DNA of 41,849 nucleotides from Candidatus Kapaibacterium sp. (GTDB taxonomy: Bacteria > Bacteroidota > Ignavibacteria > Kapaibacteriales > Kapaibacteriaceae). Positions 5,248-41,849 of the stretch are shown here, in pieces. The translations under genes were made by a program, and so were the position numbers. The stretch is from contig JAURNF010000138.1 of assembly GCA_030830285.1 (NCBI GenBank), positions 1 through 41,849 of the forward strand, read 5' to 3'. The stretch's first letter is position 1, and the number at the start of each line of letters is the position of its first letter. The notes under the pieces were generated by a model, which worked only from the letters and a program-made list of their open reading frames with translations, was not told where the DNA came from and did not search any database.

Positions 5248-5263
5248 GGGCAGGCCCCCTTCC

Positions 5264-5271: not shown

Positions 5272-5308
5272 TAGCCCGAACGTTTTCCGCACACAACAGT
5301 TGGCAACC

Positions 5309-6121
5309 ATGGCATCGCAACAGTACGTTTTGATTCTCGGTGTATCCAGTGGATTTGGTCGCGCAGCAGCAAAGGCGCTCGCAGCAGACGGATTCCATAT
5401 CGTAGGGGTTCACCTCGATCGTGCCGCAGGCCTTCAGCAGGTGGAAGAGCTTAAGACCGAGCTGCAGGGCATGGGGGTTCGCTCGCTGTTCTTCAACATG
5501 AATGCCGCAGACCCAGATCGTCGCGCCGAAGTAATGGCTGCCATCAAGGATGAGTTCGCCAAGCACGAGGGTGCCACGCTTCGCATGATGTTGCATTCGT
5601 TGGCCTTCGGGACGCTCAAGCCATTTATCGCAGATCAGCCAAACGATGCGATTTCGCAGAAGAATCTGGATATGACGTTGGATGTGATGGCTAACTCGCT
5701 GATCTACTACACACAAGACATCGTTCGCAATGGCCTTATGGGAGCGGGCGGTCGTGTCGTGGGTCTAACGAGCGCCGGTGCTACGCGTGTGCTTCCGATG
5801 TACGGTGCCGTCTCAGCTGCGAAGGCAGCGATGGAGTCATACTGCCGTCAACTTGCACTCGAACTTGCACCACACGGTATCACCGCGAATTCGATCCGTG
5901 CGGGCGTGACGTACACACCTGCGTTGTCGAAGATTCCGGGCAGTGATATCATCATGAACAATGCGCTTATGCGCAACCCATACCATCGTCTCACCACGCC
6001 TGAGGACATCGCAAACGTCTTGCGATTGCTTGCAAAGGACGAGGCGCAGTGGATCAATGGTGAAGTTCTTGGTGTTGACGGTGGTGAAGACGCAATCGAT
6101 CTTACCTGGTACAAGCCGTAA
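5309..6121 (+). CDS. SDR-family oxidoreductase, enoyl-ACP reductase-like (FabI/FabL-type)
   Basis: Gly-rich loop LGVSSGFGRAAA. Catalytic YGAVSAAKAAMESYCRQLALELAPHGITANSIRAG (YxxxK plus a FabI-like downstream block). The tracked start at 5300 is TTG; the ATG at 5309 is preferred. Confidence 0.7.
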   Translation: MASQQYVLILGVSSGFGRAAAKALAADGFHIVGVHLDRAAGLQQVEELKTELQGMGVRSLFFNMNAADPDRRAEVMAAIKDEFAKHEGATLRMMLHSLAFGTLKPFIADQPNDAISQKNLDMTLDVMANSLIYYTQDIVRNGLMGAGGRVVGLTSAGATRVLPMYGAVSAAKAAMESYCRQLALELAPHGITANSIRAGVTYTPALSKIPGSDIIMNNALMRNPYHRLTTPEDIANVLRLLAKDEAQWINGEVLGVDGGEDAIDLTWYKP

Positions 6122-6129
6122 CGCGCGGC

Positions 6130-9251: not shown

Positions 9252-10315
9252 TAGGCGATTGTGACGTCCTTGCAGAGGTACACGTCTTGAATCGCATTAA
9301 GTAATGCCACGCCCTCGTTCATCGGACGTTGGAACGCCTTACGTCCGCTAATCAATCCCATACCACCGGCACGCTTGTTGATCACTGCCGTTGTGATTGC
9401 TTCGGCCATATCGTTGTTACCAGAAGGTCCGCCGCTGTTGATGAGTCCGACACGACCCATATAGCAGTTCGCAACTTGGTATCGACAGAGGTCAATTGGA
9501 TGGTCGGACGAGAGTTCAGTGTACATACGCTCATCGAGCTTGCCATAGCTTGAACTGCCCATGTTGAGGGACTTGAATCCACCGTTGTTCTCTGGCATCT
9601 TTTGCTTGATGATGTCTGCGCCAAGGGTCACACCAAGGTGATTAGCCTGGCCCGTTAGGTCGGCCGACACGTGATAGTCCTTGTCTGACTTAAACGCGTT
9701 GTTGCGGATGTAACACCAAAGGATTGTCGCCATGCCAAGTTCGTGAGCGCGAGCAAATGCTTGTGCGATCTCAACGATTTGACGTGAGCTTTCATTCGAG
9801 CCGAAGTAAATCGTAGCACCCACGGCGGCAGCACCCATATCAGCTGCTTGCTCGACTGTGCCGAACAGTATCTGATCGAACTTATTCGGATACGTGAGAA
9901 GCTCATTGTGGTTGATCTTCACCACAAACGGAATCTTGTGAGCATATGAACGTGCAACATTGCTCAGCACGCCAAATGTTGATGCCACTGCATTGCACCC
10001 ACCCTCGATTGCCAGTTCCACAATGTTCGCTGGGTCGAAGTAGGCAGGGTTCTTTGCGAATGACGCACCAGCGCTGTGCTCGATGCCTTGATCTACCGGA
10101 AGAATCGACACATATCCTGTGCCTGCAAGTCGACCAGTGTTGTTGATCCACTCCAGACTACGAAGGACGCGATTGTTCCGATCTGAACCGCCGAAGAGCG
10201 TATCAACGGATGTCGGCGACGGGACATGAATCATCGACGAAGGAATCGTCGTTGATGTGTGATTCAGATAGTAGGCGGCCTTATCGCCGAGAGCCTGCGT
10301 GATGCGATCGATCAT
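9251..10315 (-). CDS. fbaB: class I fructose-bisphosphate aldolase (FbaB/DhnA type)
   Basis: 354 aa with an FbaB-like N-terminus ([12 protein letters not shown]...[17 protein letters not shown]), [13 protein letters not shown] and FVVKINHNE. One-nt overlap (TAATG) with the ABC gene start. Confidence 0.8.
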
Positions 10316-10340
10316 GACGGTATCGAGGAATGTGAATCCG

Positions 10341-10348
10341 CAAAGATA
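10341..10348 (-). promoter_or_regulatory. TAnnTTTG box (TATCTTTG on the minus strand), 25 nt upstream of the fbaB ATG
   Basis: Exact consensus match. It sits between the upstream terminator hairpin and the fbaB start, which is the expected terminator-promoter-gene order. Confidence 0.5.
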
Positions 10349-10381
10349 CGGGCTTCTTGGCGACCATTGCTCGAAATGACA

Positions 10382-10413
10382 AGCGGCGTGACACCTAATG
10401 GTGTCACGCCGCT
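10382..10413 (-). terminator. stem-loop terminator downstream of the giant vWA gene
   Basis: Perfect 14-bp GC-rich inverted repeat AGCGGCGTGACACC-TAAT-GGTGTCACGCCGCT, 33 nt past the stop at 10446. On the minus strand it is followed by TGTCATTTCG, so the U-tract is only short. Confidence 0.6.
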
Positions 10414-10445
10414 GGATGGATACGTATGCAAGGGAAGGGCAGGTA

Positions 10446-13400
10446 TTACTTCACGACCACGAACTGCGTGCTGGCGGTATACGGACCGCTCTGCATGCGG
10501 AGGAAGTAGACGCCCGATGCGAGCGACGATGTGTTCGCTTCGAAGATGTACGAGCCAGACGGAGCAACGGCACCTGTGGCCTCGATCACGACATTGCCCA
10601 TCGCATCGACGATCTGGAAGGTCGTCGCTACGGTGATACCTGTTGTGTACGCAACGACAAGTTCATCACGAACAGGGTTGTTGCGTGGGTTCATCAGACC
10701 GAATTGCTGACTACCGAAGCGGACGAGGCGTCCTTCCGTGAAGCACACGAACTTCATCGTGATTGTCGTTGCATCTCCCGACGTCACCAGACACGACAGC
10801 GGTGTTGTAACTATCATCGACATAGGAAGCGTTGAGTCTGCGTTCAGATACGTGTTGAACGTCGGCGTTACGAATGCGCCCTGCGTAAGAACACCCGTTA
10901 GCGACTGAGCGCGGATGACCACATTGCCCACACTAGGTGTTGATGTGAATGTCCAGCCAGCCATTTCTGGTTGTGCAAAGCCAGCGAACGACATTGCCTC
11001 AGGATCATGCGTGATCGTGATGTCGAACTGTGTTGGCAATGCGCCGGCAAATTCTCCAGCGTTGTACGCGACTGACACAGGTGTCGCTGTTACTTGTCCA
11101 GCTTGTGCCTGTGCAATTGTACCGTAGCGGAAGTTGACTGGCGTTGAGATACCCTTTCCAGTCATCGTTACGTTGAGCTTAAGGTTCTGATCGTTCGTGA
11201 ATGTGAACGTAGCAGTATAGTCCTGCACAGCCGTTGGACGGAACGTTACGATGATGGTCTTTGTAGCGCCCGGAGCTACGGTGAAGGCCGCCGTTTCACT
11301 GAGCGCGAATGCTGCAGCATCGCCTGTTCCTACCGGTGCCTGAACGTTGAGAGGGAACTGACTAGGATTGACGATGTCGAACGAATCGACACGTGTAGCG
11401 CATGTGAGCGTGTTTGCAAACGCAATAGGCGGGATGCCGGACTGATCCAGGCCAATGCCCTTTACCTCAACGCATGTTGACGCGAATGGTGGAACTGGGC
11501 CAGGGCCTGGCTTGCCATCATGCTCGATGCAGACGTTGATTGCATTGTTGCCTACGACTGCCGGAGTAAACGAAACGGTCAACTCGAGAGTGCCACCAGG
11601 AGCAATCGTTTGCGGGAATGTTGGCTTCGTGCCTGTCCATGCAAAGACTGTTGTTGCTGCCTGGAAATCAACCGCATTGATGGTGAGCGCTGCGTCCGTG
11701 TCTGTGTTGCGAAGCACAACCTTGCCCGCCTCTGGTGAGGTCGTGCTGATTGGCCAAGCCTTGAACGTATAGCCTGCTGGGTCCAGAACTGGCTGGAAGC
11801 CGACGCCGCGGATAAGGCCCACGAGCGGCGCGCTCTGACCCTGAACCGTTGCATTGACAGTGATGCTGTGAGCGCCACGAGTTTGAGGGGTGTACGTCAC
11901 AGGGATCTTGACTGAAGCGCCTGGGGCAAGAACTTGTGGCGCAGGCAATGTGATGCCGCTGAAGTTTACGTTTGTTGGATCGCTAATGCTGTAGCCGGTG
12001 ATCGACGCAGGATCGGTGTTGAGGTTGGTGATCGTGATGTTGCCGCTCACTGGAGTGAGAAGGCGAACACGACCGAAGTCGATGCTGTCAATCGCTACGC
12101 GAGGCTCGACAATTTCAACGGTGATTGTTGACACGGCGCTACCACAATCAGCTGCGAGACCGAAGTCAACGATACACGTTTTCAGGCCTGGCGACGCAGC
12201 AGCAATGTCGAGATCAAGGTTAAAACAGCCACCATTAGCTGCAAGCGAGAACGCTCCTTGATTGCGCACGGTGATGTCTGGATCTGGCTTCGTAACTGTC
12301 ACCTTGCCATTCAGCGCAAGCGGGCCAGTATTCTTCAGCACACATGTGACGGTTCGTGACGCAGGTTGTCCAAGGGGGACCTTGCCAAGCGCGACCGTCG
12401 ACTGGCTTTCCCAGACGCATGGAGCCAGACCAGTTCCCTCAAGAACCAATTGCGTGTTTGCATTGCAATTGCCAACGACCTCCAGAATCGCCGTGCGGAG
12501 GCCAGTTCCCTTTGGCTCGAACGCGAGCTCAAGCGACAGTGTGCGACCAGTGTCGAGACGGATCGGGAACACTGTAGGGGAGATGACGCGGAAGTCCGCA
12601 GCATTTGCTCCAGCGATGGTAATGCGCTGAATCGTAACAGGGAACGACCCGCGATTTCGCACAATGGATGTGAGAGATACCGGATCTGATTGCCCTTGCG
12701 GGGTGCTCTTAAAGACGACTTTTGGCTGAGCGACGGTCAACTGCGGAGCAAGGACTGAGAAGTTTGTTTTCGATACGTCGTTCGATGCAGGCGATGCACC
12801 GTTCTTGTTCACGAAGACGTCCGTGAGTCCGTTGTTCGGGAGTGTGATAGGCGGAGGTGTGAACGACTTCGGTCCCGTATACGAATCTGTCGCGTAGGTG
12901 AAGTTGAGAGCATCCTTAACCGTCTTTGCCTTGTACACAAGTCCACCAGCTGTAGGAGCTGCGGCGTTTGCCGTCAGGCGTGGATAACCACCGGCATCAT
13001 AGATCACATAGTAGTTTCTCCACGTGGTTGCAGCGGTGCCAGTGTACGGACCGTTGCGCTCGATTGTGCCACCACGGCTGATGCCAACCTCGATGTACTT
13101 CTGGAAACGACCTACGACGATGATTTCTGGATTGCCAGATGCGTCATAGCGGATGCCAATGTCAGAACAGTCAGCAATCGAGCTCGAAGTGCTTGAACCC
13201 TTGCTAATGTTTGACCACTGAAGCGAACCGTCTGGAGCAAACTTGTAGACGAACATGTTTCGCGTGTCGAGTGGTCCAGGTGAGAGTGGGAACCCACCAA
13301 ACGATGCTGCCTGACTCGAGAAGTATCCCGCGACATAGACGTTGCCGTCCTTGTCCGTGACTGCTCCGATCACGCGCTCGTCGTTTGATGCACTACCCGT

Positions 13401-15188
13401 GAGAAGCATCGTATTCGTGATGTTTCCATCAGAGTCGAACTCTGTGCAGTACCCGTCAATGTTGCCAGATTGATTGTTGACGGTAGTCGAGCCAAACTTG
13501 GCTGGACCATCGAAGTATCCAGTGGCGAACACCTTGAGTCCGTTCGGCGTAACAGCAACCGAAGTTGCTGTCTCTGCGCCAGCTCCACCCAGCTGCTTTG
13601 CCCACACGTACTGTGCGATTGGCGACACGCTGACGCGCACACGATAATTGACGCCAGCTGCTGGAGGAAGCCACTTATAGACAAGACCTGTCGCCGTGTT
13701 GGTGATGTTTGTCCAGTTCGTCCCACCGTTGGTCGAGTACTCAATGGCAACCTGTTGTGTTGGCAGCACACCGGCCCACTTGATTGTAACCGTGTCGCAG
13801 GTCGAGAACAGTTCTCCACCGACAGGGGATTGCAGAAGAATAACACCTGTGCCACCGACCAATGTCACGCTTGGCGGACATGGTGTGCCGGAGAATGCTA
13901 GTTGAGCCTGGCGGAACGACTGCATGTTGCCTTGGGTGAACTCAACGCGAATCACGCGCTTGCCATTTGGGGCAAGGTTGAACGGTGCGAATGTTGCCTG
14001 ATTGAGAGGGAAGTTCCAGTCGACTACCTTGAAGTATGTCGCCGGTGATGGCTGTGGCGCTGTCGTTACCGAGAACGGTGCGTTCAGCGCTGTCAGTGTA
14101 AAGTTCGCGTACGACTTTCCATTCGGAGCTGGATCGCCACAGAAGAGGATTGGATCACTGACTTCAACCTTTGCAAGAGCGGATGCAGGCGCTTGGTAGG
14201 GAATCGTTGCACTTGGATTTGTTCCACGCTTCATTGTGATGCGTGCAGTGCGGCTAAGTGCCTGCTCAGCGCATGCGTACGGCGATGTCCACGTGATTTG
14301 ACATGTCTTTGTGACCTGCGTCTCAAGCGCAAGCAGCGAGAGAATATCGAGCAGACGAGCTTCGTTGGTGAGGATCGACTTTCCACCGGTAGCGCGAGCA
14401 AGTGCATCGAGAGTCCAGTGTGTAGCATCGAGGTTGATCGTGATGGCAAAGAATCGAATGCCTTGCGCCTGCATGAGCTGCGTGTTGTCGTTCACAAACT
14501 TGGTTTCGTTTGGAATGCCAGGATTTGGGGTTCCGTCTGTCAGGAAGAAGACAAACTTTGGAATGCTCGCAGGACGTCGCTTGAAGAGTTCGTAAATGTT
14601 GTTGCCAGGTGCTTCAAACGGGAGTGCATAGTTCGTCACAGTCTGGATCTTAAGATCCTTGAGCGAGTCAAGAATTGGCTGCTTGTTGTTTACCCATTCG
14701 TTGATCACCTCATACGTGCCAGCGAACGAGACCAGCGAAACGCGTGTTTCGCCAACGAACTTCAGCTGGTTCACAAAGGCGCGAACAGCGTCTTTGACAA
14801 TGTCCCACCGCTGACGATTCGCACCAGGAATGACGTCGCGCATCGAGTTTGATCGGTCAAGGATGAAGATGATGCTCGCTTCAGGATCCTTGTTCTGGTC
14901 CACACATGAGTGCTTGATCGTCGCAGTGAGATCTTGTGGGCCCAGACCCTGAGGCGTTTCAACAACAGAAAAGTCCTTCTCTGTGAGATCCGTTATAGGG
15001 TTGCCTGCGGCATCCAGTGCGACATAGTCAGCGACGATCTTTGGGAATGCGGTGGCATTGATCCCATAAATGTTGATCGTCTGTGCCTGCATCACTACTG
15101 CTGCACACATCGTTGCGAGAACGAGGAATAAACGCATGCTCTTCGAGTGCATGGTGGTTCCGTGAGATAGGAAGAAAAAGTTTTTCAT
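10446..15188 (-). CDS. giant secreted surface protein: vWA (MIDAS) + SBBP beta-propeller repeats + Ig-like ASH/choice-of-anchor-D modules + cohesin-like module + T9SS C-terminal sorting domain
   Basis: Signal peptide (...[19 protein letters not shown]). vWA region approx. 14319-14876 ([29 protein letters not shown]). SBBP-like repeats ([32 protein letters not shown]). Repeated approx. 100-aa modules of the type [28 protein letters not shown]...[20 protein letters not shown]. Cohesin-like block approx. 10800-11138. Sorting domain approx. 10449-10703, ending [25 protein letters not shown] 15188 has AGGAG 9 nt upstream and overlaps the upstream stop (ATGA). Internal ATGs at 15152 and 15137 are alternative starts. 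Confidence 0.85.
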
Positions 15189-16382: not shown

Positions 16383-16469
16383 GGAAAGGTGCAAGAGTGG
16401 TTGAATTGGCACGCCTGGAAAGCGTGTGTACCGGTAACGGTACCGCGGGTTCGAATCCCGCCCTTTCCG
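16383..16469 (+). tRNA. tRNA-Ser (anticodon GGA)
   Basis: Acceptor stem GGAAAGG/CCTTTCC. Anticodon stem CACGC/GCGTG with loop CTGGAAA. Long variable arm TGTACCGGTAACGGTAC. T-arm GCGGGTTCGAATCCCGC. Discriminator G. No encoded CCA. Confidence 0.9.
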
Positions 16470-16515
16470 CAACACGACTTAACGGGGCGCGTTGCGCCGG
16501 CAGGATGAACGTTGT

Positions 16516-28983: not shown

Positions 28984-30273
28984 ATGCAACGCTTCCTTGT
29001 CACCTGTGCGCTCATTGCAAGTCTCGTCCTGGCCTCGCAAGCTCAGGACCGCGACGGTCCGGCACTGCCCATCATTCTCGATCAAGCAGATTCAATCGTA
29101 GGATCGGGTCCGATCGCAACCGGGACACGTGAGTTTGTTGGACACGTGCGGTTTACGCAGGGGAACGTGACTGTTGAATGTGATCGAGCGATTCATAACG
29201 TGGCGTCTAACAGTGTAGAACTGTTCTCTAACGTCAAGATTCAGCAGCAGGGCCTTGTGCTTCTGGCTCCGTACGTGACCTACAGCGGAACGACGAACAT
29301 CGCTGTTGCTCCACGCGGAGTGACAGTGCGTGATAAACAGTCGACAATTCAATCCCGATATGCAACGTATTCCACCACCACGCACATCGTGGTGTTCCGT
29401 GATAGCGTGTTAGCACGTGATTCAGCGCAGTTGTGGGCAGATACGCTCGTCTACGATAGGGATGCAGACACGACGGTGGCGACGGGGCGTGTGATGATTG
29501 TTGATACCATGCAGCATTTGGTAACGAAAAGTGCCTATGCATTTCGTGATCCTGCACTGAAGATCATGCGGCTCCGTGGTGATGCGCACGTGTGGCAGTG
29601 GTCTGAGCCAAGTGAGGCAACAAAGGCCGGTGACACGCTCTATCTCAATGCAGATCGTATCACATCGAAGACTGACGAGGGTGGCACAAGCTATCTGGCT
29701 GAAACGAGCGTCGCAATGACCCGCGGTAATGTTGCTGCGCGGTGCGATTCGCTGCTGGCAAATCGCGCTGCTGGACGTACCGATTTGTTCGGTCACCCAG
29801 TTGTGTGGTCGGATTCGATGCAGCTTCATGCAGACACCATTGTAGCGTCGGGTGAAGCCGACCAGTTGCGGTCGGTGGTTGGCCGTGGTTCGGCGATTTT
29901 GGTGTCGCAATCCGACTCGGTGCGAACCGATCGGTACGATCAGATCGCTGGCTCGGTTGTTTCGCTCGCCATCGAGCAAGACACGATCCGCAACCTCGAG
30001 GCAGTTGGTGACGCGCAGAGCATCACCTTCCGGACAGAGGATGAGCAAGCCGAGGGACTGGCCAAGGTCGCATCAGACACCATTCGTGTGCTCTTTGACA
30101 ACGGTCAGCTCACGGATGTGGTTTGGTTAGGGGGCGTTGAGGGAGAGCACCACCCAGAGCCTGTTGTAGCTGGCAAGGCAGAAACGTATCGCCTGCCACA
30201 GTTCCGTTGGCGGACGGATCGTCCGCGTGCGCGCCCCCTTCCACAAGCGCCCGTTGTCCGTCTGCGGAAGTAA
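28984..30273 (+). CDS. OstA/LptA-like beta-jellyroll repeat protein (periplasmic)
   Basis: Signal peptide MQRFLVTCALIASLVLASQAQ. Repeated OstA-like segments of the type ADSIVG...REFVGHVRFTQGNVTVECDRAIHN, LWADTLVYDRDADTTVATGRVMIVD and MQLHADTIVASGE. The tracked 28684 start is an antisense-overlap extension. Confidence 0.6.
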   Translation: MQRFLVTCALIASLVLASQAQDRDGPALPIILDQADSIVGSGPIATGTREFVGHVRFTQGNVTVECDRAIHNVASNSVELFSNVKIQQQGLVLLAPYVTYSGTTNIAVAPRGVTVRDKQSTIQSRYATYSTTTHIVVFRDSVLARDSAQLWADTLVYDRDADTTVATGRVMIVDTMQHLVTKSAYAFRDPALKIMRLRGDAHVWQWSEPSEATKAGDTLYLNADRITSKTDEGGTSYLAETSVAMTRGNVAARCDSLLANRAAGRTDLFGHPVVWSDSMQLHADTIVASGEADQLRSVVGRGSAILVSQSDSVRTDRYDQIAGSVVSLAIEQDTIRNLEAVGDAQSITFRTEDEQAEGLAKVASDTIRVLFDNGQLTDVVWLGGVEGEHHPEPVVAGKAETYRLPQFRWRTDRPRARPLPQAPVVRLRK

Positions 30274-30322
30274 CCTATTTTCCTGCGTTGGGTCTTCCTA
30301 CCTCACCCTGCAGGCCCGTGTC

Positions 30323-33300
30323 ATGTCGCTTCGGCGGATCATCCCATATGTTGTCGTCCTCCTCGCACTTGTTACACACAGTGTTGCGCAGGTCGAGCGT
30401 GTGCTGCCCCGAAGGGGTGGTTCCTCGCTGGAGGGGACGTCGTTTGTTGTGGGGTTTATGGCGAACGAGATTCTCGAGGTAGGCGAAGATCCGCGGGTAC
30501 AGATCTTCATCTCGTCGCAGTTCGACGCCACGGTGACGATAAGCTCGCCACTTGCCAGTCCGGTCACGTACACCATTCCAGCATCCACCGTTCGTGTGTT
30601 CAGCATGAATGCGATGCATGTGGTCAACGCATCAGAACAGAAGTCGCCAAAAGCCATCTTCATTGATTCTGATGTGCCAATTGTGGTGTACACACTTAAC
30701 TCGCTGGCATTGTCGACGGATTCCTACACTGCGATCCCAATCAAGAACTGCGGCACGGATTACTTCACGGTAAATCGACCAACAGATTGGTACCGACCAG
30801 GTCGGTCGTTCAATCCACTCGACAGGGCGCCGCGTGTTGGCGAGTTTATGATCATGGCCACACAAGACGGCACAGATGTGGTGATTGACCCTCGCGTAGC
30901 AACCAAGGGTGGAAGATCGGCGGGGCAGCAGTTTTCGGTGCAACTGAACAAGGGCGACTGTTACCTCGTGCAGGCGCAGGCGACGAGACATGGCGGTGAT
31001 GACTTGACAGGTTCGTCGATAAGTTCGAACCTCCCAGTAGCGGTGATTTCTGGTCATATGCGGTCGAGCGTGCCAACGGACTCGACCATCAGTAAGGATC
31101 ATCTTGTTGAGCAGCTTCCCCCTGTGGGTAAGTGGGGCCGTGCCTACGCCACCTCTCCGCTAGCGCAGATCGTGCGTCCAGACGCATTCCGGATTGTTGC
31201 GTCGCGGCAGAACCAACTTGTTCGCCTGACCACGAGGTTTGGGTCAACCACCTTCACGTTGTCCACGCCGGGTTCTTGGCGCGATACCACGTTGAAGGAG
31301 CCAGCGTCGTGGTCGAGCGACGCGCCATTTCTGCTCACACAGTTTATGAGTAGCTCCACCTCCGGAGCGTATGGCGATCCGGCAATGGTGATCGTTCCAC
31401 CGACTGAGCAGTTCGTGAATCAGACGATGTTCCAGTTTCCTGTCCTAGAGGAGTCTGGACTCGACAATCAACACTTCTACTATTTCATCAACGTAGTTGC
31501 TGAGGCGTCCGCGCTATCGACGCTGCGTGTCAACACTACGTTGGCAACAACTATTGCGCCTGGTCTGCAAACGCAGACTATTCCGGGGACATCGTTGCAC
31601 TGGGCAACATTGCAATTGAGGGAAGGCGCATACACCATGCAAGCGGATACGGGTCGGTTCAGCGGTGTGATGTATGGAACATCGATTGTGGACTCGTATG
31701 CGAACATGGTTGGTGTGGCATACGACAGTATCCGTGTCGATGATGTTTCACCCCCGATGTACCGTCTCGCGGTTGGATGTGGCGAGGTCAGTGGTATTGT
31801 TCGCGATACGTCGAACATGCGCGCGAAGCTCGATGCTGTTCGCGTGATCACATCGCGCACGACAAACTATCGATGGTCGATTGTGCCAGCGCTTGATGAC
31901 TCAGCTGTTGCGGAAGTATGGGCGCAGGTGAAAGATCTCTGGCGTGATGCGCAGATAGTGCTCCATGCATATGACGATCAGGGGAACGGACGCGAATGGT
32001 TGTACACCTATGATGCTCCAAATGTTCAGGTCCCGGCTGATGTGGTCATTGATGCCACGAGCGCTGGAGTGCAATGCACCACGGCTGTGTTTCGCAACCG
32101 TGACACAACGCCCGTTACCATAGCGCGCGTATCGATCAATGGCGATGCGCGGTTCTCGCTTGCTGGACCGATCTTCCGTGATACGGTGATTGCACCTGGG
32201 GACTCGCTTGTGATTACCGTGTGCATGCAACGTACGGCTGATACATCGCAGGCTCGAGGCACAATTATCGTTGAATATCCATGTCGATTGCAGCGCTTCG
32301 TAAACGTCCGATCTGCGACGGTAGCAGCACTGTCCACAGTACTGCTCGACTTCGGAGATATCCGCGCAGGGGACACCGCATGTGGACGTCTGCCGATTGT
32401 CAACAGTGGTCCGTCGGATGTGACAGTAACTGCACTGCTTATTGAACGGCAGTGGCCACAGTTCCGCATCAACCTCAGCAGCCTGCGATTGCCAAGGTTG
32501 CTTCGTCCGCGCGACACACTTTGGGTTGATGTCTGCTTTACACCCGACTCAGCGATACGATACGAGCGTAACGACACCGTGCGATCGTCGCCTGACTGTG
32601 GTCTGCGAACAACTATTGTTGGTCGTGGGGTACGCCCCGACGTCGCCTCGATTACCATTGATTGGGGTCGGCGACGTATTGGAGTGTCGTACGATTCGAT
32701 TGCGATACTCCGAAATCGGGGGGATGGTTGGATCATCCTTGATGGTTGGACGGCATGGTCGGATTCGATTATTCGTACATCTGGTCCAGGATCGCCGCAA
32801 CGTCTCAATCCTCAGGACACCGTATCTCTGGGTATAGTGGCCAGACCAGAACGTCGCGGACTATTAACGCAGATCGACACTGTCCAACGCGATTGGACGC
32901 GGCATCAGCCGATAACTGTGCGGCATATCATCCAAGGAGTTCAGCCAGAGCTCAAGGGTATCGATACCGACTTTGGAACTGCCCTTATCGGGGAATCGAA
33001 GGACAGTGTCATCGACCATCTGATCAGCGGAAGCGATGGGGGCAATGGTCCGGTAGTCATACGATCCATACGCGTGCTTGGACCAGATTCTGCTGCGTTT
33101 AGCATCCCACAGAACGCTCTCACACACCCTTCACTCGCCGCGGTTGACACGCTGCGCGCTCGTACAGGATTTGCTCCACTCCGGTCTGGACCGCACGTAT
33201 GCGTTGTTGAGGTCACACATGACGGAGCATATGGTGCAGGGGATTCTGTCACACGCTATGTGCTTCGTGGGGATGGACTCAAGCCAGTGAGCTCAAAGCT

Positions 33301-34303
33301 TGGCCTGAGAGTCTCCTATGAGGCACAAGTACCCGTGTGCACCGATCAACCAATTGTGATCGTCGTGAAGAATGAAGGCGACGGCCCAGGGCGTATCGAC
33401 ACTGTGGACGTTGTTACGGACAACGGGCGCCGTCGTGTCGTGTACGATAGCCCTGGTGTCGAGATCTTGCCAGGGGGCCAGCACAGCTGGACTGTTGATT
33501 GGATGTGGATGAGAAACTCAAATCGCACGCTCATCGTGCGTGTGGTCGATGCCACCGGTGTCGAGCTCTTTGATACAGTTGTCGTGGATCTCTATGTACC
33601 GAAGGTTCAAGCAACATTGACGGTGCAGGGGGCTCCCTTACTTGAAACTGGACCTACTGAGCTACTCGTCGATGTGCAACTCGCATCTCCTGATGCTCTA
33701 GTGCAGCAGGCCAACCTCAGTGTGTACGTTCCTCGCACGCGGTTTGTCCTGTTTTCTCCCACCGCACGTGTGATTGGAACACAGCGTGGAATCGCCATCG
33801 ACACAATAGTGCCGGCAGAGCAGAGAAATGATTCTGTCAGAACAATACTGCCAATGAGCTCCGGACCATGGACGTATAAGGTTGTGTTCGCTGGGGTGTT
33901 CCTTTGGCAGGATCCGCAGACCTTCTCCATCGCGGTTACCGTGGACACAACGCAGTGTTTCGATGGGGCAGCCGATGAAGTTGTTGATCTCGCACTCACT
34001 CCGTGCGGATCCGGGGCCCGTGTTGTTCGGCTACAGGGTCGCCCCTCGATCAAGGCAACCGTTCTTAGTACTCCAGTGCATGACAATCTTTCGCTACGGC
34101 TTGAAACAGAGGCTCCAACGCGCATCAGAATAGCCGTGGAGACCCTCACAGGACAAAGTTTTACCCTTGTTGAAGGTTTCTCTTTGCAAAAGGGGGTCGA
34201 GCATTGTAATTTTTCGTGTTCCGGGTGGGCATCTGGAGTTTACCGTGTACTTGTACAGGGTAGTTCTGGAGAGACGGATTGCAAAGTCATCATCGTCAAC
34301 TAG
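30323..34303 (+). CDS. giant secreted surface protein: IgGFc-binding-N-like head + Ig-like ASH/choice-of-anchor-D modules + cohesin-like module + T9SS C-terminal sorting domain
   Basis: Signal peptide MSLRRIIPYVVVLLALVTHSVAQ. Head: EGTSFVVGFMANE...PVAVISGHMRSSVP...DHLVEQLPPVGKWG...GDPAMVIVPPTEQF...FSGVMYG. Repeated modules such as LDFGDIRAGDTACGRLPIVNSGPSDVTV. Cohesin-like block approx. 33595-33960. Cys pair (TTQC...TPCG). Sorting domain approx. 34061-34300 (ASGVYRVLVQGSSGETDCKVIIVN). Confidence 0.85.
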   Translation: MSLRRIIPYVVVLLALVTHSVAQVERVLPRRGGSSLEGTSFVVGFMANEILEVGEDPRVQIFISSQFDATVTISSPLASPVTYTIPASTVRVFSMNAMHVVNASEQKSPKAIFIDSDVPIVVYTLNSLALSTDSYTAIPIKNCGTDYFTVNRPTDWYRPGRSFNPLDRAPRVGEFMIMATQDGTDVVIDPRVATKGGRSAGQQFSVQLNKGDCYLVQAQATRHGGDDLTGSSISSNLPVAVISGHMRSSVPTDSTISKDHLVEQLPPVGKWGRAYATSPLAQIVRPDAFRIVASRQNQLVRLTTRFGSTTFTLSTPGSWRDTTLKEPASWSSDAPFLLTQFMSSSTSGAYGDPAMVIVPPTEQFVNQTMFQFPVLEESGLDNQHFYYFINVVAEASALSTLRVNTTLATTIAPGLQTQTIPGTSLHWATLQLREGAYTMQADTGRFSGVMYGTSIVDSYANMVGVAYDSIRVDDVSPPMYRLAVGCGEVSGIVRDTSNMRAKLDAVRVITSRTTNYRWSIVPALDDSAVAEVWAQVKDLWRDAQIVLHAYDDQGNGREWLYTYDAPNVQVPADVVIDATSAGVQCTTAVFRNRDTTPVTIARVSINGDARFSLAGPIFRDTVIAPGDSLVITVCMQRTADTSQARGTIIVEYPCRLQRFVNVRSATVAALSTVLLDFGDIRAGDTACGRLPIVNSGPSDVTVTALLIERQWPQFRINLSSLRLPRLLRPRDTLWVDVCFTPDSAIRYERNDTVRSSPDCGLRTTIVGRGVRPDVASITIDWGRRRIGVSYDSIAILRNRGDGWIILDGWTAWSDSIIRTSGPGSPQRLNPQDTVSLGIVARPERRGLLTQIDTVQRDWTRHQPITVRHIIQGVQPELKGIDTDFGTALIGESKDSVIDHLISGSDGGNGPVVIRSIRVLGPDSAAFSIPQNALTHPSLAAVDTLRARTGFAPLRSGPHVCVVEVTHDGAYGAGDSVTRYVLRGDGLKPVSSKLGLRVSYEAQVPVCTDQPIVIVVKNEGDGPGRIDTVDVVTDNGRRRVVYDSPGVEILPGGQHSWTVDWMWMRNSNRTLIVRVVDATGVELFDTVVVDLYVPKVQATLTVQGAPLLETGPTELLVDVQLASPDALVQQANLSVYVPRTRFVLFSPTARVIGTQRGIAIDTIVPAEQRNDSVRTILPMSSGPWTYKVVFAGVFLWQDPQTFSIAVTVDTTQCFDGAADEVVDLALTPCGSGARVVRLQGRPSIKATVLSTPVHDNLSLRLETEAPTRIRIAVETLTGQSFTLVEGFSLQKGVEHCNFSCSGWASGVYRVLVQGSSGETDCKVIIVN

Positions 34304-34314
34304 GGTGCAGGATT

Positions 34315-35130
34315 ATGAGGAGATTCGCTACCGCCGTCTTTGCGGTATTCCTCGCGGCGACGGGGAGCATGGTCGCACAGCAAGAGCTTGGTGCTCGTTC
34401 GAATCCGCTTGTTCCGGAGCGAAGCGCACCGCGCATCTACCTGGGACCAGTTGTGGGATACAACAGGTCGTTGCACTCTTCCGGCTTTCAGTCGGTAGCC
34501 GGTGACGTCCTTTGTCCGCAGTTCGAACAGGGTACCGACAACGGCTTCTATGTGGGCATGTCGTTCGAGTACTTGTTGGGCAAGCCGCGCGATTCGAAGT
34601 CATCGATTATCGCTCGCGTCCTGTACAACAACCTTCCGGCAGCGTATACCGTGCCTGGCGACACACTTCCGTCGCTCAGTGCCTCGGGTGAGGTTGTCAC
34701 ATCGGTTGTTGACCACACGGCAGACATCAAGTATGCGCTCCTCGATATCGAGGTGATGTACAAGTTGAATCTCTTCAACTCGAACTTTGGTGTTACTGTA
34801 GGTCCAGCTGTTGGTTATGTTCTCACAGCGCAGCGTGTACAGGCGATGAACCTTGTACAGCCGTTGAACGCACAGTTCGACCCAACGTTCTGCCCTGAGT
34901 GCGAGTACGTCAATGACGGTCGCACGGTGATTACAGCGCGCGATGACATTCCTGGGCACTCTGCGATTCGCGTTGCGATCAAAGCGGGCGCACAGTACGA
35001 AATCCCAGTGGGGCGTCTGCTTCTTGTACCAGCGATCTATTACAACTTCGGAGTAACAGAAGTGAGCGCAGCAGACAACCTCCGAATCAATGCATTTCAG
35101 GCTGGTATCGACCTGCGATTTGCACTGTAA
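34315..35130 (+). CDS. outer-membrane beta-barrel protein (OMP_b-brl_2-like)
   Basis: Signal peptide MRRFATAVFAVFLAATGSMVAQQ. Alternating beta-strand pattern (FYVGMSFEYLLG, YALLDIEVMYKLNLF, AIRVAIKAGAQYEI, LLLVPAIYYNFGV, AFQAGIDLRFAL). It starts 11 nt after the giant gene stop. Confidence 0.7.
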   Translation: MRRFATAVFAVFLAATGSMVAQQELGARSNPLVPERSAPRIYLGPVVGYNRSLHSSGFQSVAGDVLCPQFEQGTDNGFYVGMSFEYLLGKPRDSKSSIIARVLYNNLPAAYTVPGDTLPSLSASGEVVTSVVDHTADIKYALLDIEVMYKLNLFNSNFGVTVGPAVGYVLTAQRVQAMNLVQPLNAQFDPTFCPECEYVNDGRTVITARDDIPGHSAIRVAIKAGAQYEIPVGRLLLVPAIYYNFGVTEVSAADNLRINAFQAGIDLRFAL

Positions 35131-37629: not shown

Positions 37630-37659
37630 TTGAACATGTCAGGATTTGTCTTATTTTAC
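37630..37659 (+). promoter_or_regulatory. candidate promoter for the third giant gene: TTG-N19-TATTTTAC (also readable as TTGAAC-N16-TATTTT)
   Basis: The geometry fits both a -33/-7 and a -35/-10 layout, but the -7 box is imperfect (TAttTTac versus TAnnTTTG). It would give an approx. 80-nt leader ending in AGGAG (37731-37735), 8 nt before ATG 37744. Confidence 0.3.
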
Positions 37660-37743
37660 GATGCTACCCGGTGTGCGTAATACACGCTGTGTTCCAACTT
37701 CTGAATATCCAACCCACTTTTCAACACGCCAGGAGAAAGTCCG

Positions 37744-40700
37744 ATGAGACTTGTTTCCACCACGATGAAATCGATGATCGCTGTCGTCATGATGACGATC
37801 CTCGGTATTGGGGTGATTTCGGCACAAGACGTGACCGAACGCCGTGGTACAATGGTCCTCACTGAAGGTCGCAAGTATATTGTTGCGTTCCCGCAGGTGA
37901 TTGCCAGCCCGACAGAGAAGCCGATGCCGCAGCCTATGCAGCTGCTCATCTCTTCGAAGTCAAAGACAACTGTCCGTGTTCAGACGCCAGCCGGTATTAA
38001 CGATGCTGCGCGTATGGACAAGGAATACACTGTTGAGGCCAACAAGGTTCTCAAGATTCCAGTGTCTACGGCATACATGAATACCGAGTCGGAAACCCGC
38101 AAGGGCTACGGCATCATGGTTACGTCGAAGAAGCCGATCTCGGTTTCGACGTACCAGGCGTGGATGGGTAATGGTGAAATGGCTCGTCACCTTCCAGTTG
38201 AGGGATGGGGCAAGAACTACTACTCAATGAACTTCTATCAGGATCGATACGGCAATAGCTCAGGCTACAAGTACCGTCCAGCACAGATCCTTCTGGTAGC
38301 AGACAAGGATAACACTGTTGTTTCGTACACACCGACAGTTGATACTGAGGGTGGAGTTGAAACACCAACTGTGCGCAAGGGTGCAACTCAGACGATTACA
38401 CTTGAAAAGGGTGAAACATTCCTGATCAAGGCGAAGATCATCGAAGACCAGAACAAGGAATGGTCAACAGACCTTACAAGCACATGGATCCGCGCAAGCA
38501 AGCCAATCGGTGTTGTTTCGGGTCACACAAAGGTTGCGATCATGCGCTACCCAGACGTGCTCCCTCCAACTGGTATGTTCGCAGCTGAAGCGCACTTCGT
38601 CCGTAGCAACGTACACGATGCGATGCTTCCGCTTGAAATGGCTGGCAAGAAGTTCGTGACAACTCCTTGTATGTACACACCGACACGCGTTGTTGGTCAA
38701 GCATCTGTCGAGTTCGGTATCGACGATGACCGCGGTGATGTCATCCGCGTTATTGCACTTGAGGATGGAACAACTGTCAAGGCGATGCGTCAAGACGGTA
38801 GCGGCCTCATGAACAAGTGGATCCTCAAGAAGGGTGAAACGCGTCTCGAGACAGCTCTTGAAGTTGCAACGTATTGGGAATCAGACAAGCCGATCCTCAT
38901 GGGTCAGTACGGCAAGTCGTACGCAAAGATTCTTCCACCAGCGTTCCTCCCTTCGGGCGGAAAGAGTGGTAAGAATGGTGAAGACGCACAAGGCCACCCA
39001 ACTGTTGAGTCGGGCATGCCAATGTTGCAGTACGTGCCTTCAGTAGATCGTTGGGCAGACTACGGTGTGTTCCACGCTCCAGAGGGCATGGACAACTTCT
39101 TCAACATCGTGTTCAAGTCGTCTGAAATCGGCAAGATCAAAGTTGACGGTCGTTCGCTGACATCTGCATTCGGTGGTGCAATGCGCCTCCTCAAGGGTAC
39201 AGAGTATGCGTTCATCCGCACACCTATCGGTGCTGGTGATCACTTCATTGAAACAACAGATCCTAACGTACGCTGGGCAGCTTGGAACTACGGTTCGCTT
39301 GATGGTCTCCAGCAGGGCCGTGCATACGGTACACCAATCTCGATCGACATGACCATCCCATGCGATGACTCGTTGTCGGTTAAGGAAGAGCTCGTTTGTG
39401 GTGATGTAAAGGCAGAAGGCAAGATCCTTCCAGAAAACACATCATGCGGCTCAATCTTTGCAGTCTACCCAGAAGAACTCAACAACTATGAGCTCATCGT
39501 TGACGAAGAGTTCACAAGTGGTGACAAGAAGGTAACCTTCGAAGTCAAGGTTCTTGATAAGACAAAGGATGCGACAGCAACGATCCGCGTTGTGTCACGT
39601 TCTGGCAAGTACATCGAGAAGACGTACACATACATCGCAGACAAGATCAGCTGGACTCCATCGAAGCTCGAATTCGGTACGATTCCATTCAATACGCCAA
39701 CGTCAATGACGTTCACGATCAAGAATGAGAAGACAGACCGTCCAGTCAACATCCGCAAGATCCGCGTGATGGGTGGCGATCAAGTCTTCCTCACAAATCC
39801 AACTGGTCCGATCACACTCGGCCCGTCGGAGTCACGTGAAATCACAGTAACAGCACAAATCAAGACAGCTCCACTTGTGGTTGACACAGTGATCTGTGAA
39901 CTTGACTGTTATGATCAAAAGACGGTAGAACTCCGTGTTCGCGGTGAAGAACCGAAGATCTATGTCAGCGACGTAGACTGGGGAACAGTACCAGCAAGCT
40001 CACCTGGCATCGAGCGCGTTGTTTCGATCCAGAACGGTAGCCGCGTTGTTCTGAACGTCACAGGCTTTGATGAAAAGCTTCTTGACGGCAGCAACAATGG
40101 CAAGTTCTTCAACCCAGTTACAATTGATGGCAAGCCACTCAAGTCTGTCTTCCCACTTGCAATCCCTGCAAATGGCACGTACGACTTCAAGGTGACATAC
40201 AGCCCTAAGGGTGAAGTTTCAGTTGCACACCGTGTAGACGTTCCGTTCTACTCGAACGCAACTGGTGTTGACAACATCGCAGTGCTTAAGGGCTCTGGTA
40301 ACGACGTGAATGTCCAAGCGTACACAACACCATGGATTGAGCGCGTTATCGACGTTATTCAGACATCGCAGAACATCAATGAGTACACACAGCGTGTATC
40401 GTTTGAGAACCTCGGTGATCAGCCTGTAACGTATGAAGCACCAGTTATTCGTGGCACAGATGCTGCGAACTTCCGCATCGTCGATAATGGCAATGTTGGA
40501 ACATTCCCAGTGCAGCTCGTAAAGGGTGCATCGAATCAGACACGTTATGTGACGGTGGCATTCGTTCCAACAGAACTTGCAAACCGTGCAGCAGAGCGTA
40601 CGTACAAGGCTGAAATCGTCTTCGCGACGACAGGCGCTGATGGTGCAAAGAAGGATGTCGTCGCTGCGCTTGATGGAACTGCATGGCAGCCACAAGTCAA

Positions 40701-41849
40701 GGGCGAAAACCTCGACTTCCCAGGCACAATGAATGTTGGTGACGCAGCGAAGGTTCTTTCGATTCCAATTTCGAACGAGCACTTCATGGGTCAGTCAAAC
40801 CCAACATCAGGTACACCTTCGGGTACATACAATGTTGTGATCACAGACATCAAGATCACAGACGCTGCTACGAAGTTTGAAATCCTCAATGCACCAACAC
40901 CTGCTAACCCATGGGTTATCAAGCCAGGTGAAGCACCAGTAGAACTTCAAGTTCGTTTTGACCCATCGGTCTCTGGCAACTTCGAGTCGCCATATGTGAT
41001 CAGCACAAACGTTGGTACAAAGGGTCAAGCACCGTACGAGCCAACGTACAAGATCACAGCACGCGTTCAAGGTGGTGAGTTCACTGTTACAGATGCAGAT
41101 GCAGAGCAGTATGTCTTCAACACCAAGGACATGTCTATTCGCATCAAGCACACAGAGAACCAGACAATCCGCTACAATATCGCTCAGCCAACAGGCGCAG
41201 ATGCTTCACGCTTTGTCATCGTTGATCAATACGTCGACGTTGCTCCAGGTAAAGAAGTTTCGGTCCCAGTTATCTTCATGCCTGACTTCGTAACGAAGCT
41301 CCGCAATGGTCAATCAGACCTCAAGGATGCGAACAACGAGTGGACAAAGAAGGCAAAGACTCAGGGCATCATGTGGCGCAATGGTCAGTTCGAGGCAGAA
41401 GTTGTGATCTCTGACGACCGCAACGCAGCTAAGACAAAGACTGCTAAGCTCACAGGTAATGGTCTCTTCCTCGAGACAACGAACCTCATCAAGGATAGCT
41501 ACTCGGTTGCACCGGGTGCATCGGTGAACATCCCTGTAGAACTCAATGCAACACCAGAGGCACTTGATGCCGTTGGTATGACTGAGCTTCGCGTTCGCTT
41601 GAGCTGGGATCCAAAGCTTGTTCGTCCACGTGTAAACCCTGCAGACTTCATCACAGCAGGATTCCAGGCAGAAGGTTGGACAATCCGTGCGACACCAGTC
41701 AACGGTAAGCCAACAGATGCATCGAACTCAGTTGAAATCGATCTCTGGGATGAGCGTGCGACACCAGTTGCACTCAAGAACAACGGCACACCAGTGTTCA
41801 GTGTGAAGTTCGACGCATTCCTTGATAAGGGTGTAGCTGGAACATTCAC
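37744..41849 (+). CDS. giant secreted surface protein (5' part, >1,368 codons, runs off the window): IgGFc-binding-N-like head + at least four Ig-like ASH/choice-of-anchor-D modules + start of a cohesin-like module
   Basis: Not in the ORF track. I read every in-frame codon from 37744 to 41849 and found no stop; the frame is closed upstream by TGA at 37702-37704. Signal peptide MRLVSTTMKSMIAVVMMTILGIGVISAQD. Head parallels the 30323 gene (EGRKYIVAFPQ..., PIGVVSGHTKVAIMRYP, HDAMLPLEMAG, MPMLQYVPSVDRW, WAAWNYG). Modules such as LEFGTIPFNTPTSMTFTIKNEKTDRPVNIRKI. The C-terminal visible part, APGASVNIPVELNATPEALDAVGMTELRVRLSWDPKLV...GWTI, is cohesin-like. Confidence 0.85.
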   Translation, partial: MRLVSTTMKSMIAVVMMTILGIGVISAQDVTERRGTMVLTEGRKYIVAFPQVIASPTEKPMPQPMQLLISSKSKTTVRVQTPAGINDAARMDKEYTVEANKVLKIPVSTAYMNTESETRKGYGIMVTSKKPISVSTYQAWMGNGEMARHLPVEGWGKNYYSMNFYQDRYGNSSGYKYRPAQILLVADKDNTVVSYTPTVDTEGGVETPTVRKGATQTITLEKGETFLIKAKIIEDQNKEWSTDLTSTWIRASKPIGVVSGHTKVAIMRYPDVLPPTGMFAAEAHFVRSNVHDAMLPLEMAGKKFVTTPCMYTPTRVVGQASVEFGIDDDRGDVIRVIALEDGTTVKAMRQDGSGLMNKWILKKGETRLETALEVATYWESDKPILMGQYGKSYAKILPPAFLPSGGKSGKNGEDAQGHPTVESGMPMLQYVPSVDRWADYGVFHAPEGMDNFFNIVFKSSEIGKIKVDGRSLTSAFGGAMRLLKGTEYAFIRTPIGAGDHFIETTDPNVRWAAWNYGSLDGLQQGRAYGTPISIDMTIPCDDSLSVKEELVCGDVKAEGKILPENTSCGSIFAVYPEELNNYELIVDEEFTSGDKKVTFEVKVLDKTKDATATIRVVSRSGKYIEKTYTYIADKISWTPSKLEFGTIPFNTPTSMTFTIKNEKTDRPVNIRKIRVMGGDQVFLTNPTGPITLGPSESREITVTAQIKTAPLVVDTVICELDCYDQKTVELRVRGEEPKIYVSDVDWGTVPASSPGIERVVSIQNGSRVVLNVTGFDEKLLDGSNNGKFFNPVTIDGKPLKSVFPLAIPANGTYDFKVTYSPKGEVSVAHRVDVPFYSNATGVDNIAVLKGSGNDVNVQAYTTPWIERVIDVIQTSQNINEYTQRVSFENLGDQPVTYEAPVIRGTDAANFRIVDNGNVGTFPVQLVKGASNQTRYVTVAFVPTELANRAAERTYKAEIVFATTGADGAKKDVVAALDGTAWQPQVKGENLDFPGTMNVGDAAKVLSIPISNEHFMGQSNPTSGTPSGTYNVVITDIKITDAATKFEILNAPTPANPWVIKPGEAPVELQVRFDPSVSGNFESPYVISTNVGTKGQAPYEPTYKITARVQGGEFTVTDADAEQYVFNTKDMSIRIKHTENQTIRYNIAQPTGADASRFVIVDQYVDVAPGKEVSVPVIFMPDFVTKLRNGQSDLKDANNEWTKKAKTQGIMWRNGQFEAEVVISDDRNAAKTKTAKLTGNGLFLETTNLIKDSYSVAPGASVNIPVELNATPEALDAVGMTELRVRLSWDPKLVRPRVNPADFITAGFQAEGWTIRATPVNGKPTDASNSVEIDLWDERATPVALKNNGTPVFSVKFDAFLDKGVAGTF

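Follow-up and report, generated by a model that had tools for sequence, protein, structure and literature searches.

A giant Kapabacteria protein with extreme codon bias, a predicted type IX secretion cargo, has host-matched copies in large phages

We analyzed a stretch of DNA of 41,849 nucleotides (nt) from Candidatus Kapaibacterium sp. (GenBank assembly GCA_030830285.1, contig JAURNF010000138.1, positions 1 to 41,849 of the forward strand; here, the window) and focused on the giant gene that runs off its end (the target). An earlier prediction, made from the sequence alone, had described this gene as encoding an abundant, S-layer-like surface protein with extreme codon bias. As it stated, plus-strand frame 1 is free of stop codons from the ATG at position 37744 through to the window's final base, a run of 1,368 codons, and the program-made list of open reading frames (ORFs) holds only a short minus-strand shadow ORF in this stretch. 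The target is missing from the list because the lister omits ORFs that run off their source. Mechanical lists of this kind can hide what may be a region's most highly expressed gene. A homology search retrieved a protein of 1,505 amino acids (aa), P0001, that is 99% identical to the 1,368 target residues in the window and whose full-length gene, on contig L001, extends 137 codons past the window end. The same search delimited a family of proteins of about 1,470 to 1,560 aa with 40 to 99% identity, all from Kapabacteria/"Ignavibacteria" metagenome-assembled genomes (MAGs) and bearing generic NCBI names (type IX secretion system [T9SS] sorting-domain or choice-of-anchor D proteins).

Species-representative genomes were scanned and yielded 52 chromosomal loci, all from MAGs of the Kapabacteria group, an uncultured class. 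The gene order is conserved: HflX, an LptD-like gene, a target paralogue, a 271-aa outer membrane protein (OMP)-like gene, HIT, RsmA, PAP2, the target, and then GSDH-CTD, KdtA, ECH, NAGPA, NamZ, and XerC/D. Since this neighborhood is unchanged across species whose proteins range in identity from 99% to as low as 45%, the target can be regarded as a vertically inherited core gene, and it appears to be single copy in Kapabacteria. Several MAG records with the syntenic locus (L015, L022, L023, L027, L028, L036, and others) bear implausible organism names (Melioribacter sp., Melioribacter roseus, Chitinophaga pinensis, Hyphomicrobiales, Bradyrhizobiaceae, Patescibacteria, and Didemnitutus) and look like mislabeled bins or contaminant contigs. 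A third, short form of the protein (about 920 to 940 aa) also occurs in some Kapabacteria (L060, L063, and L064; P0111, P0113 to P0115, and P0118). It aligns with about the first 850 target residues at 52 to 56% identity, has in most cases a C-terminal T9SS sorting domain (CTD), and is encoded apart from the full-length gene, on another contig.

The mature target protein is about 162 kDa, with a pI of 5.5 and 0.5% Cys. Its N terminus, MRLVSTTMKSMIAVVMMTILGIGVISA followed by QD, shows the n/h/c organization typical of Sec signal peptides, with a basic n-region and a 15-residue hydrophobic core, and is conserved among orthologues; the signal peptide proposed originally can thus be read directly from the sequence. 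Behind it lies an all-beta head with a strong match to the Pfam IgGFc_binding model PF17517 (143.1 bits against a cutoff of 25.6; 1.4e-41; profile positions 6 to 290 of 297). The AlphaFold2 (AF2) model of the head reached a pLDDT of 81.7 and a pTM of 0.83. For the whole model, a fold search of the Protein Data Bank (PDB) gave no match (TM score of ≤0.15), only a similarity of about 120 residues to TM1070 and weak cupin matches, and a search of viral models (BFVD) gave one uncharacterized phaeovirus protein (TM score of 0.42), all of them uninformative on function. Mean identity of the head among cellular copies is 0.69. Fifteen of its polar residues are invariant in 42 cellular and phage sequences (H261, K263, R268, D271, H284, R287, N289, H291, D292, E298, H418, E422, H500, D520, and R526).

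The head is joined by a Cys-containing neck to a series of about five immunoglobulin (Ig)-like domains. Here the choice-of-anchor D model NF012200 matched aa 628 to 705 (55.1 bits; cutoff, 45), so two of the three families suggested for hidden Markov model (HMM) searches were found above their cutoffs; Pfam added HYDIN, Cep192, and DUF1573 matches, and a PDB profile search matched only HYDIN/ASH Ig domains (profile positions 627 to 770 and 1022 to 1128). The AF2 model of aa 1141 to 1505 (pLDDT of 89.7) contains a beta-sandwich that Foldseek superposed on cohesins (5lxv, 5nrm, 6kgf, and 4dh2) at TM scores of 0.54 to 0.64, with root mean square deviations of 4.3 to 7.4 Å and 11 to 14% sequence identity. 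The predicted cohesin-like module therefore holds at the level of the fold, but membership in the cohesin family PF00963 does not, as Pfam gave no such match at an E value of ≤0.01 (window protein) or ≤0.001 (P0001). At the C terminus, beyond the window, P0001 carries a type-A sorting domain, for which a test had been proposed (PF18962; aa 1427 to 1492; 28.3 bits against a cutoff of 27). With its signal peptide and CTD, the target has the marks of a type-A T9SS cargo protein. Other CTD proteins are encoded at the locus, namely, a giant von Willebrand factor A (VWA) protein (TIGR04183; 28.7 bits against a cutoff of 23) and the downstream GSDH protein; these two lend indirect support to a T9SS in this organism, whose core por/gld genes are not in the window.

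Upstream of the target lies a promoter-like motif, TTGAACATGTCAGGATTTGTCTTATTTTA, and motifs of the form TTG-N17-21-TAnnTT were present in 32 of 34 orthologous upstream regions, 50 to 131 nt (mostly 70 to 100 nt) before the ATG, compared to only 4% of random 230-nt windows. The motif resembles what we take to be the Bacteroidota sigma-A promoter consensus and probably acts as the target promoter; a sigma-70 promoter scan of the window stayed at chance level. The canonical Shine-Dalgarno (SD) motif AGGAG is present at the spacing of 8 nt claimed for it, and GGAG is kept at this position in nearly all target orthologues. Because an SD-like motif lies within 20 nt of the start in just 4 of the 17 window genes checked, this conserved GGAG stands out. 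Such a scarcity of SD motifs is expected for Bacteroidota. Directly 3' of the stop codon is a 16-bp GC-rich hairpin. These signals suggest that the target is an independent transcription unit with the hallmarks of strong expression.

Codon usage of the target differs sharply from that of the rest of the window, in agreement with the original prediction. Its hand counts of Lys codons were exact, both for the target (86 AAG and 3 AAA) and for mutL (10 AAG and 4 AAA). The Lys statistic alone overstates the contrast, however, since most window genes also favor AAG (81% when pooled). Other measures bring it out more fully. Wright's effective number of codons (Nc) is 37.8 in the target and 44.9 to 60.3 in 25 other window genes, the scaled chi-square against the pooled background is 0.231 compared to 0.06 to 0.125, and 13 largely avoided codons make up 1.3% (0.013) of its codons but 5 to 14% elsewhere. 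The codon table, built on the full-length orthologue P0001, has no CGA, CGG, AGG, ATA, CTA, TTA, CCC, or AGT and a single GGG, and the counts likewise bear out the reported preference for TTC, TAC, AAC, GGT, ACA, CCA, GCA, and GTT. The GC content of the target (50.5%) is lower than that of other window genes (51 to 56%), as had been claimed, but the gap is modest and smaller than the sampled lines had suggested. The AT skew also flips sign over positions 38001 to 41000 (+0.07 to +0.13, compared to about −0.1 in the 6 kb before), which fits a preference for A-ending four-fold codons (ACA, CCA, and GCA) plus GAA and AAG.

To place this bias within the genome, we built a principal-component analysis (PCA) of relative synonymous codon usage from 33 other genes, leaving the target out, and then projected the target onto it. 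On the first component (PC1), the target lay at −2.78, past the most extreme other gene (−1.72). The genes toward the same end were those for FabI, the VWA protein, CysK, FBA aldolase, and ArgRS, and those at the opposite end were RsmA, PAP2, an ECF sigma factor, and HIT; the loadings contrasted CGT/CGC with CGA/CGG, CAC with CAT, ATC with ATT, and AAG with AAA. The codon bias of the target thus exaggerates the genome's own trend and is extreme relative to this genome. The pattern recurs across species: among 33 species with usable flanks and locus GC contents of about 44 to 60%, the Nc of the orthologue is the lowest at its locus in 31, and its GC content is under the locus median in every one. 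Codon usage of foreign origin would not have lasted across 33 species, and the bias is therefore not foreign. We infer from the bias that the target is very highly expressed, with codons tuned for fast translation.

Several points weigh against this interpretation. PC1 explains just 15.6% of the variance, and good expression of the in-window reference genes at its target end (FabI, FBA, CysK, and ArgRS) is a presumption. A lowered synonymous substitution rate (dS) might be expected if synonymous sites were under very strong selection, yet the dS of the target relative to a sister strain (0.227) is not below that of its neighbors (0.19 to 0.36). Ribosomal-protein, EF-Tu, and chaperone genes of the lineage were not found in the 1.34 Mb examined, where tblastn with approximate EF-Tu, GroEL, DnaK, L7/L12, S12, L2, and RpoA query sequences returned only a phage GroEL; the PCA and the 33-species comparison stood in for a codon adaptation index against ribosomal and EF-Tu genes. 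Literature searches gave no transcript or protein abundance data for any family member. As the window ends before the CTD, the sorting domain and anchoring are deduced from the 99%-identical P0001, and as the head has no characterized structural or sequence relative, "adhesin" is an architectural term here. The predicted high expression is therefore backed by the codon bias, the regulatory signals, and the recurrence in 31 of 33 species as an inference and not as a measurement.

The original prediction also named a divergent paralogue lacking this bias, and both statements hold, although the relationship is distant (BLASTP, 23% identity over 745 aa; E = 6e-27) and the paralogue is plainly not codon optimized (Nc of 53.8). 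Relative to the sister strain, the ratio of nonsynonymous to synonymous change (dN/dS) is 0.033 for the target and 0.118 for the paralogue; between species, the target ratio is 0.05 to 0.06. The target is under strong purifying selection. The paralogue is the middle gene of a trio, flanked by the LptD/OstA-like gene and the 271-aa OMP-like gene, which has no curated family, and this order recurs in each chromosomal locus for which the gene content was read. An identity of the 271-aa gene as PorP/SprF-like was rejected, with no NCBIfam match and only a subthreshold Pfam OMP_b-brl match. Elsewhere in the window, the VWA protein (1,580 aa, with five choice-of-anchor D Ig domains and a CTD) has an Nc of 45.9 and a PC1 value of −1.69, second only to FabI on the axis, and is perhaps well expressed too. 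The only Rfam or ARAGORN match in the window is a tRNA-Ser(GGA) between the LD-carboxypeptidase and ECF sigma-factor genes.

Homologues of about 1,410 aa make up a large sister clade of the cellular proteins. Every context examined, whether for this sister clade or for its deep relative P0119, is a large phage genome, and a full-length homologue is present in two large-phage lineages (L009, L010, L011, L012, L013, L014, and L068; locus GC of 36 to 41%). Among the genes of L009 and L011 are those for a clamp loader, exonucleases, a helicase, a GH19 endolysin, a large terminase, and a tail sheath; both L012 and L014 encode peptide deformylase, NUDIX, and GH19 proteins, with GroEL/ES (Cpn60/Cpn10) in L012 and NUMOD3 and Toprim in L014; and L013 carries a phage lysozyme and glycosyltransferases. 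Three of the phage contigs are in IMG/VR (39.8, 133.7, and 253.4 kb). The GroEL of L012 is 64.5% identical to that of Escherichia coli, and this phage also encodes several glycosyltransferases and nucleotide-sugar enzymes, a gene set typical of large phages that remodel host physiology, possibly including surface glycans.

The phage homologues are 39 to 45% identical to P0001, include genes of 38 to 43% GC, and always lie immediately upstream of the endolysin gene; the family is absent from PHROGs v4. They retain the signal peptide, and one of them passes the CTD cutoff (TIGR04183; 23.7 bits against 23). A neighboring phage protein of 144 aa has a clear T9SS CTD (31.7 bits with the same model). 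In the phages of group B, a conserved pair of signal-peptide proteins is encoded just upstream of the homologue, one of about 140 aa with a T9SS CTD and one of about 350 to 388 aa without a family. Host counterparts of the 140-aa and 388-aa proteins were not found in the chromosomal loci examined. The pair and the homologue seem to constitute a phage module of secreted cargo beside the endolysin.

The similarity between phage and host copies is concentrated in the head. Here the identity between phage and cellular copies (0.67) is close to that among cellular copies (0.69), whereas the other regions show 0.21 to 0.40 between phage and cell and 0.40 to 0.66 among cells. Two phage contigs carry a tract that was evidently captured from a host. 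In L067, the flanks are about 83% identical at the nt level to phage L009, while the tract is closest to the chromosomal allele of MAG L016 (95.7% nt identity); the breakpoints fall at the end of the signal peptide and just past the host terminator hairpin, which was carried along. In L072, the flanks are about 80% identical to phage L010, the tract is closest to the allele of MAG L018 (96.3%), and the breakpoints are at the start codon and just after the stop codon. The window locus is collinear with L016 and with L018, which are therefore ordinary chromosomal loci. The L067 junction k-mer is present only in L067's own contig. An assembly chimera is nevertheless very unlikely, because the two events, at junctions known from assembled contigs alone, involve two phage lineages and two hosts.

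The captured alleles have dN/dS values of 0.08 to 0.16, which points to functional genes still under purifying selection. Their excess amino acid change is in the Ig stalk (dN/dS of 0.12 to 0.25, compared to 0.05 to 0.06 between hosts). At least twice, phages have overwritten their own copy with the allele of their current host. The captures indicate that these phages infect the lineage of the window and need an exported copy of the target protein. The link between phages and Kapabacteria holds despite a GC gap of 5 to 10 points. The target itself is a new, uncharacterized member of known families. Our literature searches found no report of a phage-encoded T9SS cargo and nothing relevant on bacterial PF17517 proteins, the T9SS of Kapabacteria, or expression in Kapabacteria. 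The features described above are listed in Table 1.

TABLE 1 Coordinates of the target gene, its protein regions, and related features in the window and in other records
Feature	Record	Coordinates	Strand	Basis or remark
Target coding sequence, codons 1 to 1368 of 1,505	Window	37744-41849	+	Open frame; 3' part beyond window end
Promoter-like motif (TTG-N19-TAnnTTTA), 85 nt upstream of ATG	Window	37630-37658	+	Conserved motif
SD motif AGGAG, 8 nt before ATG	Window	37731-37735	+	Conserved in relatives
Sec signal peptide, aa 1-27, predicted cleavage ISA-QD	Window	37744-37824	+	Sequence features
All-beta head, aa 28-545	Window	37825-39378	+	Pfam and AF2 model
PF17517 IgGFc_binding inside head, aa 150-507	Window	38191-39264	+	Pfam
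Cys-containing neck, aa 546-635	Window	39379-39648	+	Invariant C540, C552, and C568 in alignment
About 5 Ig-like (ASH/PapD-like, choice-of-anchor D) domains, aa 636-1210	Window	39649-41373	+	HMM matches
Start of cohesin-fold beta-sandwich, aa ~1215-1385	Window	41386-41849	+	AF2; remainder past window
T9SS CTD, aa ~1400-1505	Beyond window		+	PF18962 in P0001
Shadow ORF, 187 aa	Window	40219-40782	-	ORF list
Distant paralogue, 1,326 aa, with PF17517 head, Ig domains, and degenerate CTD-like end	Window	30323-34303	+	BLASTP
Trio: LptD/OstA-like gene, paralogue, 271-aa OMP-like gene	Window	28984-35130	+	
VWA T9SS cargo, 1,580 aa	Window	10446-15188	-	
tRNA-Ser(GGA)	Window	16383-16470	+	
Full-length gene of P0001	L001	10001-14518		
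Short form	L060	351-2861		
Phage homologue	L009-L012, L014, L068	about 10001-14400		
Phage homologue	L013	1839-6080		
Group B secreted pair	L012	8249-9861		
Group B secreted pair	L010	8270-9891		
Group B secreted pair	L072	710-2304		
Group B secreted pair	L014	8415-9891		
Group B secreted pair	L068	~8316-9790		
Phage GroEL/GroES	L012	21156-23080	-	
Captured tract	L067 (IMGVR_UViG_3300037041_002705, 133.7 kb)	10075-14560		GC of ~50% in a 39-45% background
Captured tract	L072 (JGI Ga0181358_1002640, 8.0 kb)	2466-6975		

One alternative is that the target forms a true S-layer, with monomers that are exported by the T9SS, anchored to lipopolysaccharide, and assembled into a two-dimensional crystalline lattice, possibly together with the paralogue. 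The model for this would be TfsA and TfsB of Tannerella forsythia, paralogous CTD cargo proteins of 133 and 151 kDa that are the major surface proteins of this species, sit anchored on its outer membrane, carry heavy O-glycosylation, and assemble into a p4 lattice (PMC4175972, PMC12175726). The target and its paralogue (162 and 144 kDa) likewise are a pair of large proteins, and the target follows the same export logic of a Sec signal peptide plus a CTD, is acidic and poor in Cys and His, and has a codon bias and regulatory signals that would suit the most abundant protein of a cell. Replacement of a phage copy by the host allele would also make sense if that copy had to coassemble with host subunits. 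The S-layer proteins among the Ig-type matches of the C-terminal fold search (7ptu, 9g93, and 5ftx), however, reflect generic Ig-domain similarity (TM score of ≤0.21), the head-on-stalk layout suggests a fibril or adhesin and not a tile, and nothing so far points to a lattice. The head is 69% identical across the class, with a dN/dS of 0.03 to 0.06, an unusual degree of conservation; S-layer proteins are usually far less conserved. While TfsA and TfsB are densely glycosylated, the Bacteroidota O-glycosylation sequon D(S/T)(A/I/L/V/M/T) is depleted in the target (2 sites in 1,505 aa, compared to 5.7 expected from composition; 2 to 6 in relatives). Only one of the two paralogues is codon optimized, the genes are parted by four unrelated genes, and the paralogue has a context of its own, which is unlike an equimolar lattice of two coexpressed subunits. 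The unbiased paralogue and the sequon depletion thus weaken the case for a two-component S-layer of the TfsA/TfsB type, and no Tannerella protein was among the 120 best matches listed, no direct sequence comparison with TfsA/TfsB having been made. The S-layer-like character claimed in the original prediction lacks direct evidence, and with conservation, sequons, and the unoptimized paralogue all speaking against it, we consider an S-layer unlikely.

The head could also be catalytic or substrate binding, so that the target would be an abundant secreted or displayed enzyme or nutrient-capture protein with which phages feed the infected cell. Hydrolases on Ig/CTD stalks are common among T9SS cargo proteins, the invariant polar residues of the head are unusually dense, and the head is the one region that is conserved in phage copies and remains under purifying selection after capture. 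Yet the head matched no enzyme family by Pfam, NCBIfam, PDB sequence, or fold, and PF17517 is known only as a binding-type domain, which makes an enzyme quite improbable. As for the codon usage, it might reflect a foreign origin, or gene flow from low-GC phage alleles, in place of expression: the target GC content is under the locus median in every species compared, the phage homologues are poorer still in GC, and host and phage copies do recombine. The observed transfers, however, run from host to phage, where the captured alleles stand out as GC-rich islands, and a phage-type allele occurs in 0 of 52 chromosomal loci. The direction of the bias is also opposite, as the target is enriched in C-ending two-fold codons (0.72) and AAG (0.97) whereas the phage alleles are not (0.40 to 0.41 and 0.51 to 0.67, respectively). 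Together with the position of the target on the genome's own codon-usage axis and the class-wide neighborhood, these observations lead us to reject a foreign or phage origin of the bias, which is close to refuted.

The target has counterparts in several known systems. SprB and RemA of Flavobacterium johnsoniae are stalked adhesins of Bacteroidota anchored through the T9SS, and the target resembles them as a distal functional module on an Ig-like array, probably exported by the T9SS and displayed on the surface. SprB, a motility adhesin, has a type-B CTD and a cognate PorP/SprF partner; the target differs from it in its type-A CTD and the absence of SprB repeats, and there is no evidence of a link to gliding. 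PF17517 corresponds to the N-terminal domain of animal FCGBP, and many bacterial proteins that contain it carry no annotation beyond T9SS sorting domain or choice-of-anchor D. The target head matches this model but, at about 520 aa, exceeds the Pfam domain in size and lacks a structural relative that has been solved, and our literature search found no bacterial PF17517 member with a described function. The beta-sandwich of the target superposes on the cohesins of cellulosomal scaffoldins (PF00963), a likeness of fold and not shown membership, as it has neither a Pfam match nor a known dockerin partner. Phages that encode homologues of host surface components are known, among them phage PA-2 with its OmpC-like porin Lc and the seroconverting phages. 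The phages of Kapabacteria similarly carry an exported homologue of what is probably a major host surface component, but here it is a T9SS cargo protein of 1,400 to 1,500 aa in large, apparently lytic-type genomes, beside the endolysin, with a retained head, a diverged stalk and anchor, and repeated overwriting by the host allele.

Taken together, we think it likely that the target is a very highly expressed cell surface protein anchored through the T9SS, the major adhesin or coat of Kapabacteria. Its gene would be transcribed as a unit of its own, from the conserved Bacteroidota-type promoter about 85 nt upstream through an SD leader to the 16-bp hairpin, and its optimized codons would allow fast translation. 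The protein would cross the inner membrane through Sec by means of its signal peptide and the outer membrane through the T9SS by means of its type-A CTD, after which, by analogy with other type-A cargo, the CTD would be removed and the protein fixed to the outer membrane surface. The long stalk of cohesin-fold module, Ig-like domains, and neck, as drawn from the AF2 models and HMM matches, would then hold the head off the cell. The head presumably carries the function, most likely the binding of a conserved ligand or partner, and this function would matter enough for phages of these bacteria to keep an exported copy. Of the original claim of an abundant surface structural protein, the surface anchoring through the T9SS is thus the best explanation of the data, and the abundance is deduced from the codon and regulatory signals.

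As a more speculative proposal, which we regard as possible though short of probable, the dominant coat or adhesin of Kapabacteria may also be a focus of phage-host conflict. At least two large-phage lineages would export their own copy through the host T9SS, keeping the head, changing the stalk and anchor, and periodically overwriting the copy with the allele of the current host, and would thereby remodel or maintain the surface of the infected cell. Possible roles of the phage copy include superinfection exclusion, shielding of progeny from adsorption to infected cells and debris, compatibility with a lattice or partner, and maintenance of an abundant coat. If this proposal is true, it would be the first description both of phage-encoded T9SS cargo and of "allele matching" in which phages recurrently adjust their copy of a surface protein to that of the host.

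For the biology of Kapabacteria, these findings may have several consequences. If the target is really the most abundant surface protein, it would be a marker antigen for imaging or sorting the cells of this uncultured class and a natural candidate for a phage receptor. The 4.5-kb tracts at 96% identity tie large phages without a known host (36 to 44% GC) to hosts of 48 to 54% GC, and they suggest that phages can encode cargo of the T9SS. Such repeated and precise exchange of a phage gene for the host's allele is uncommon and can be studied experimentally, and the conserved head of 520 residues is evidently under strong selection on its function.

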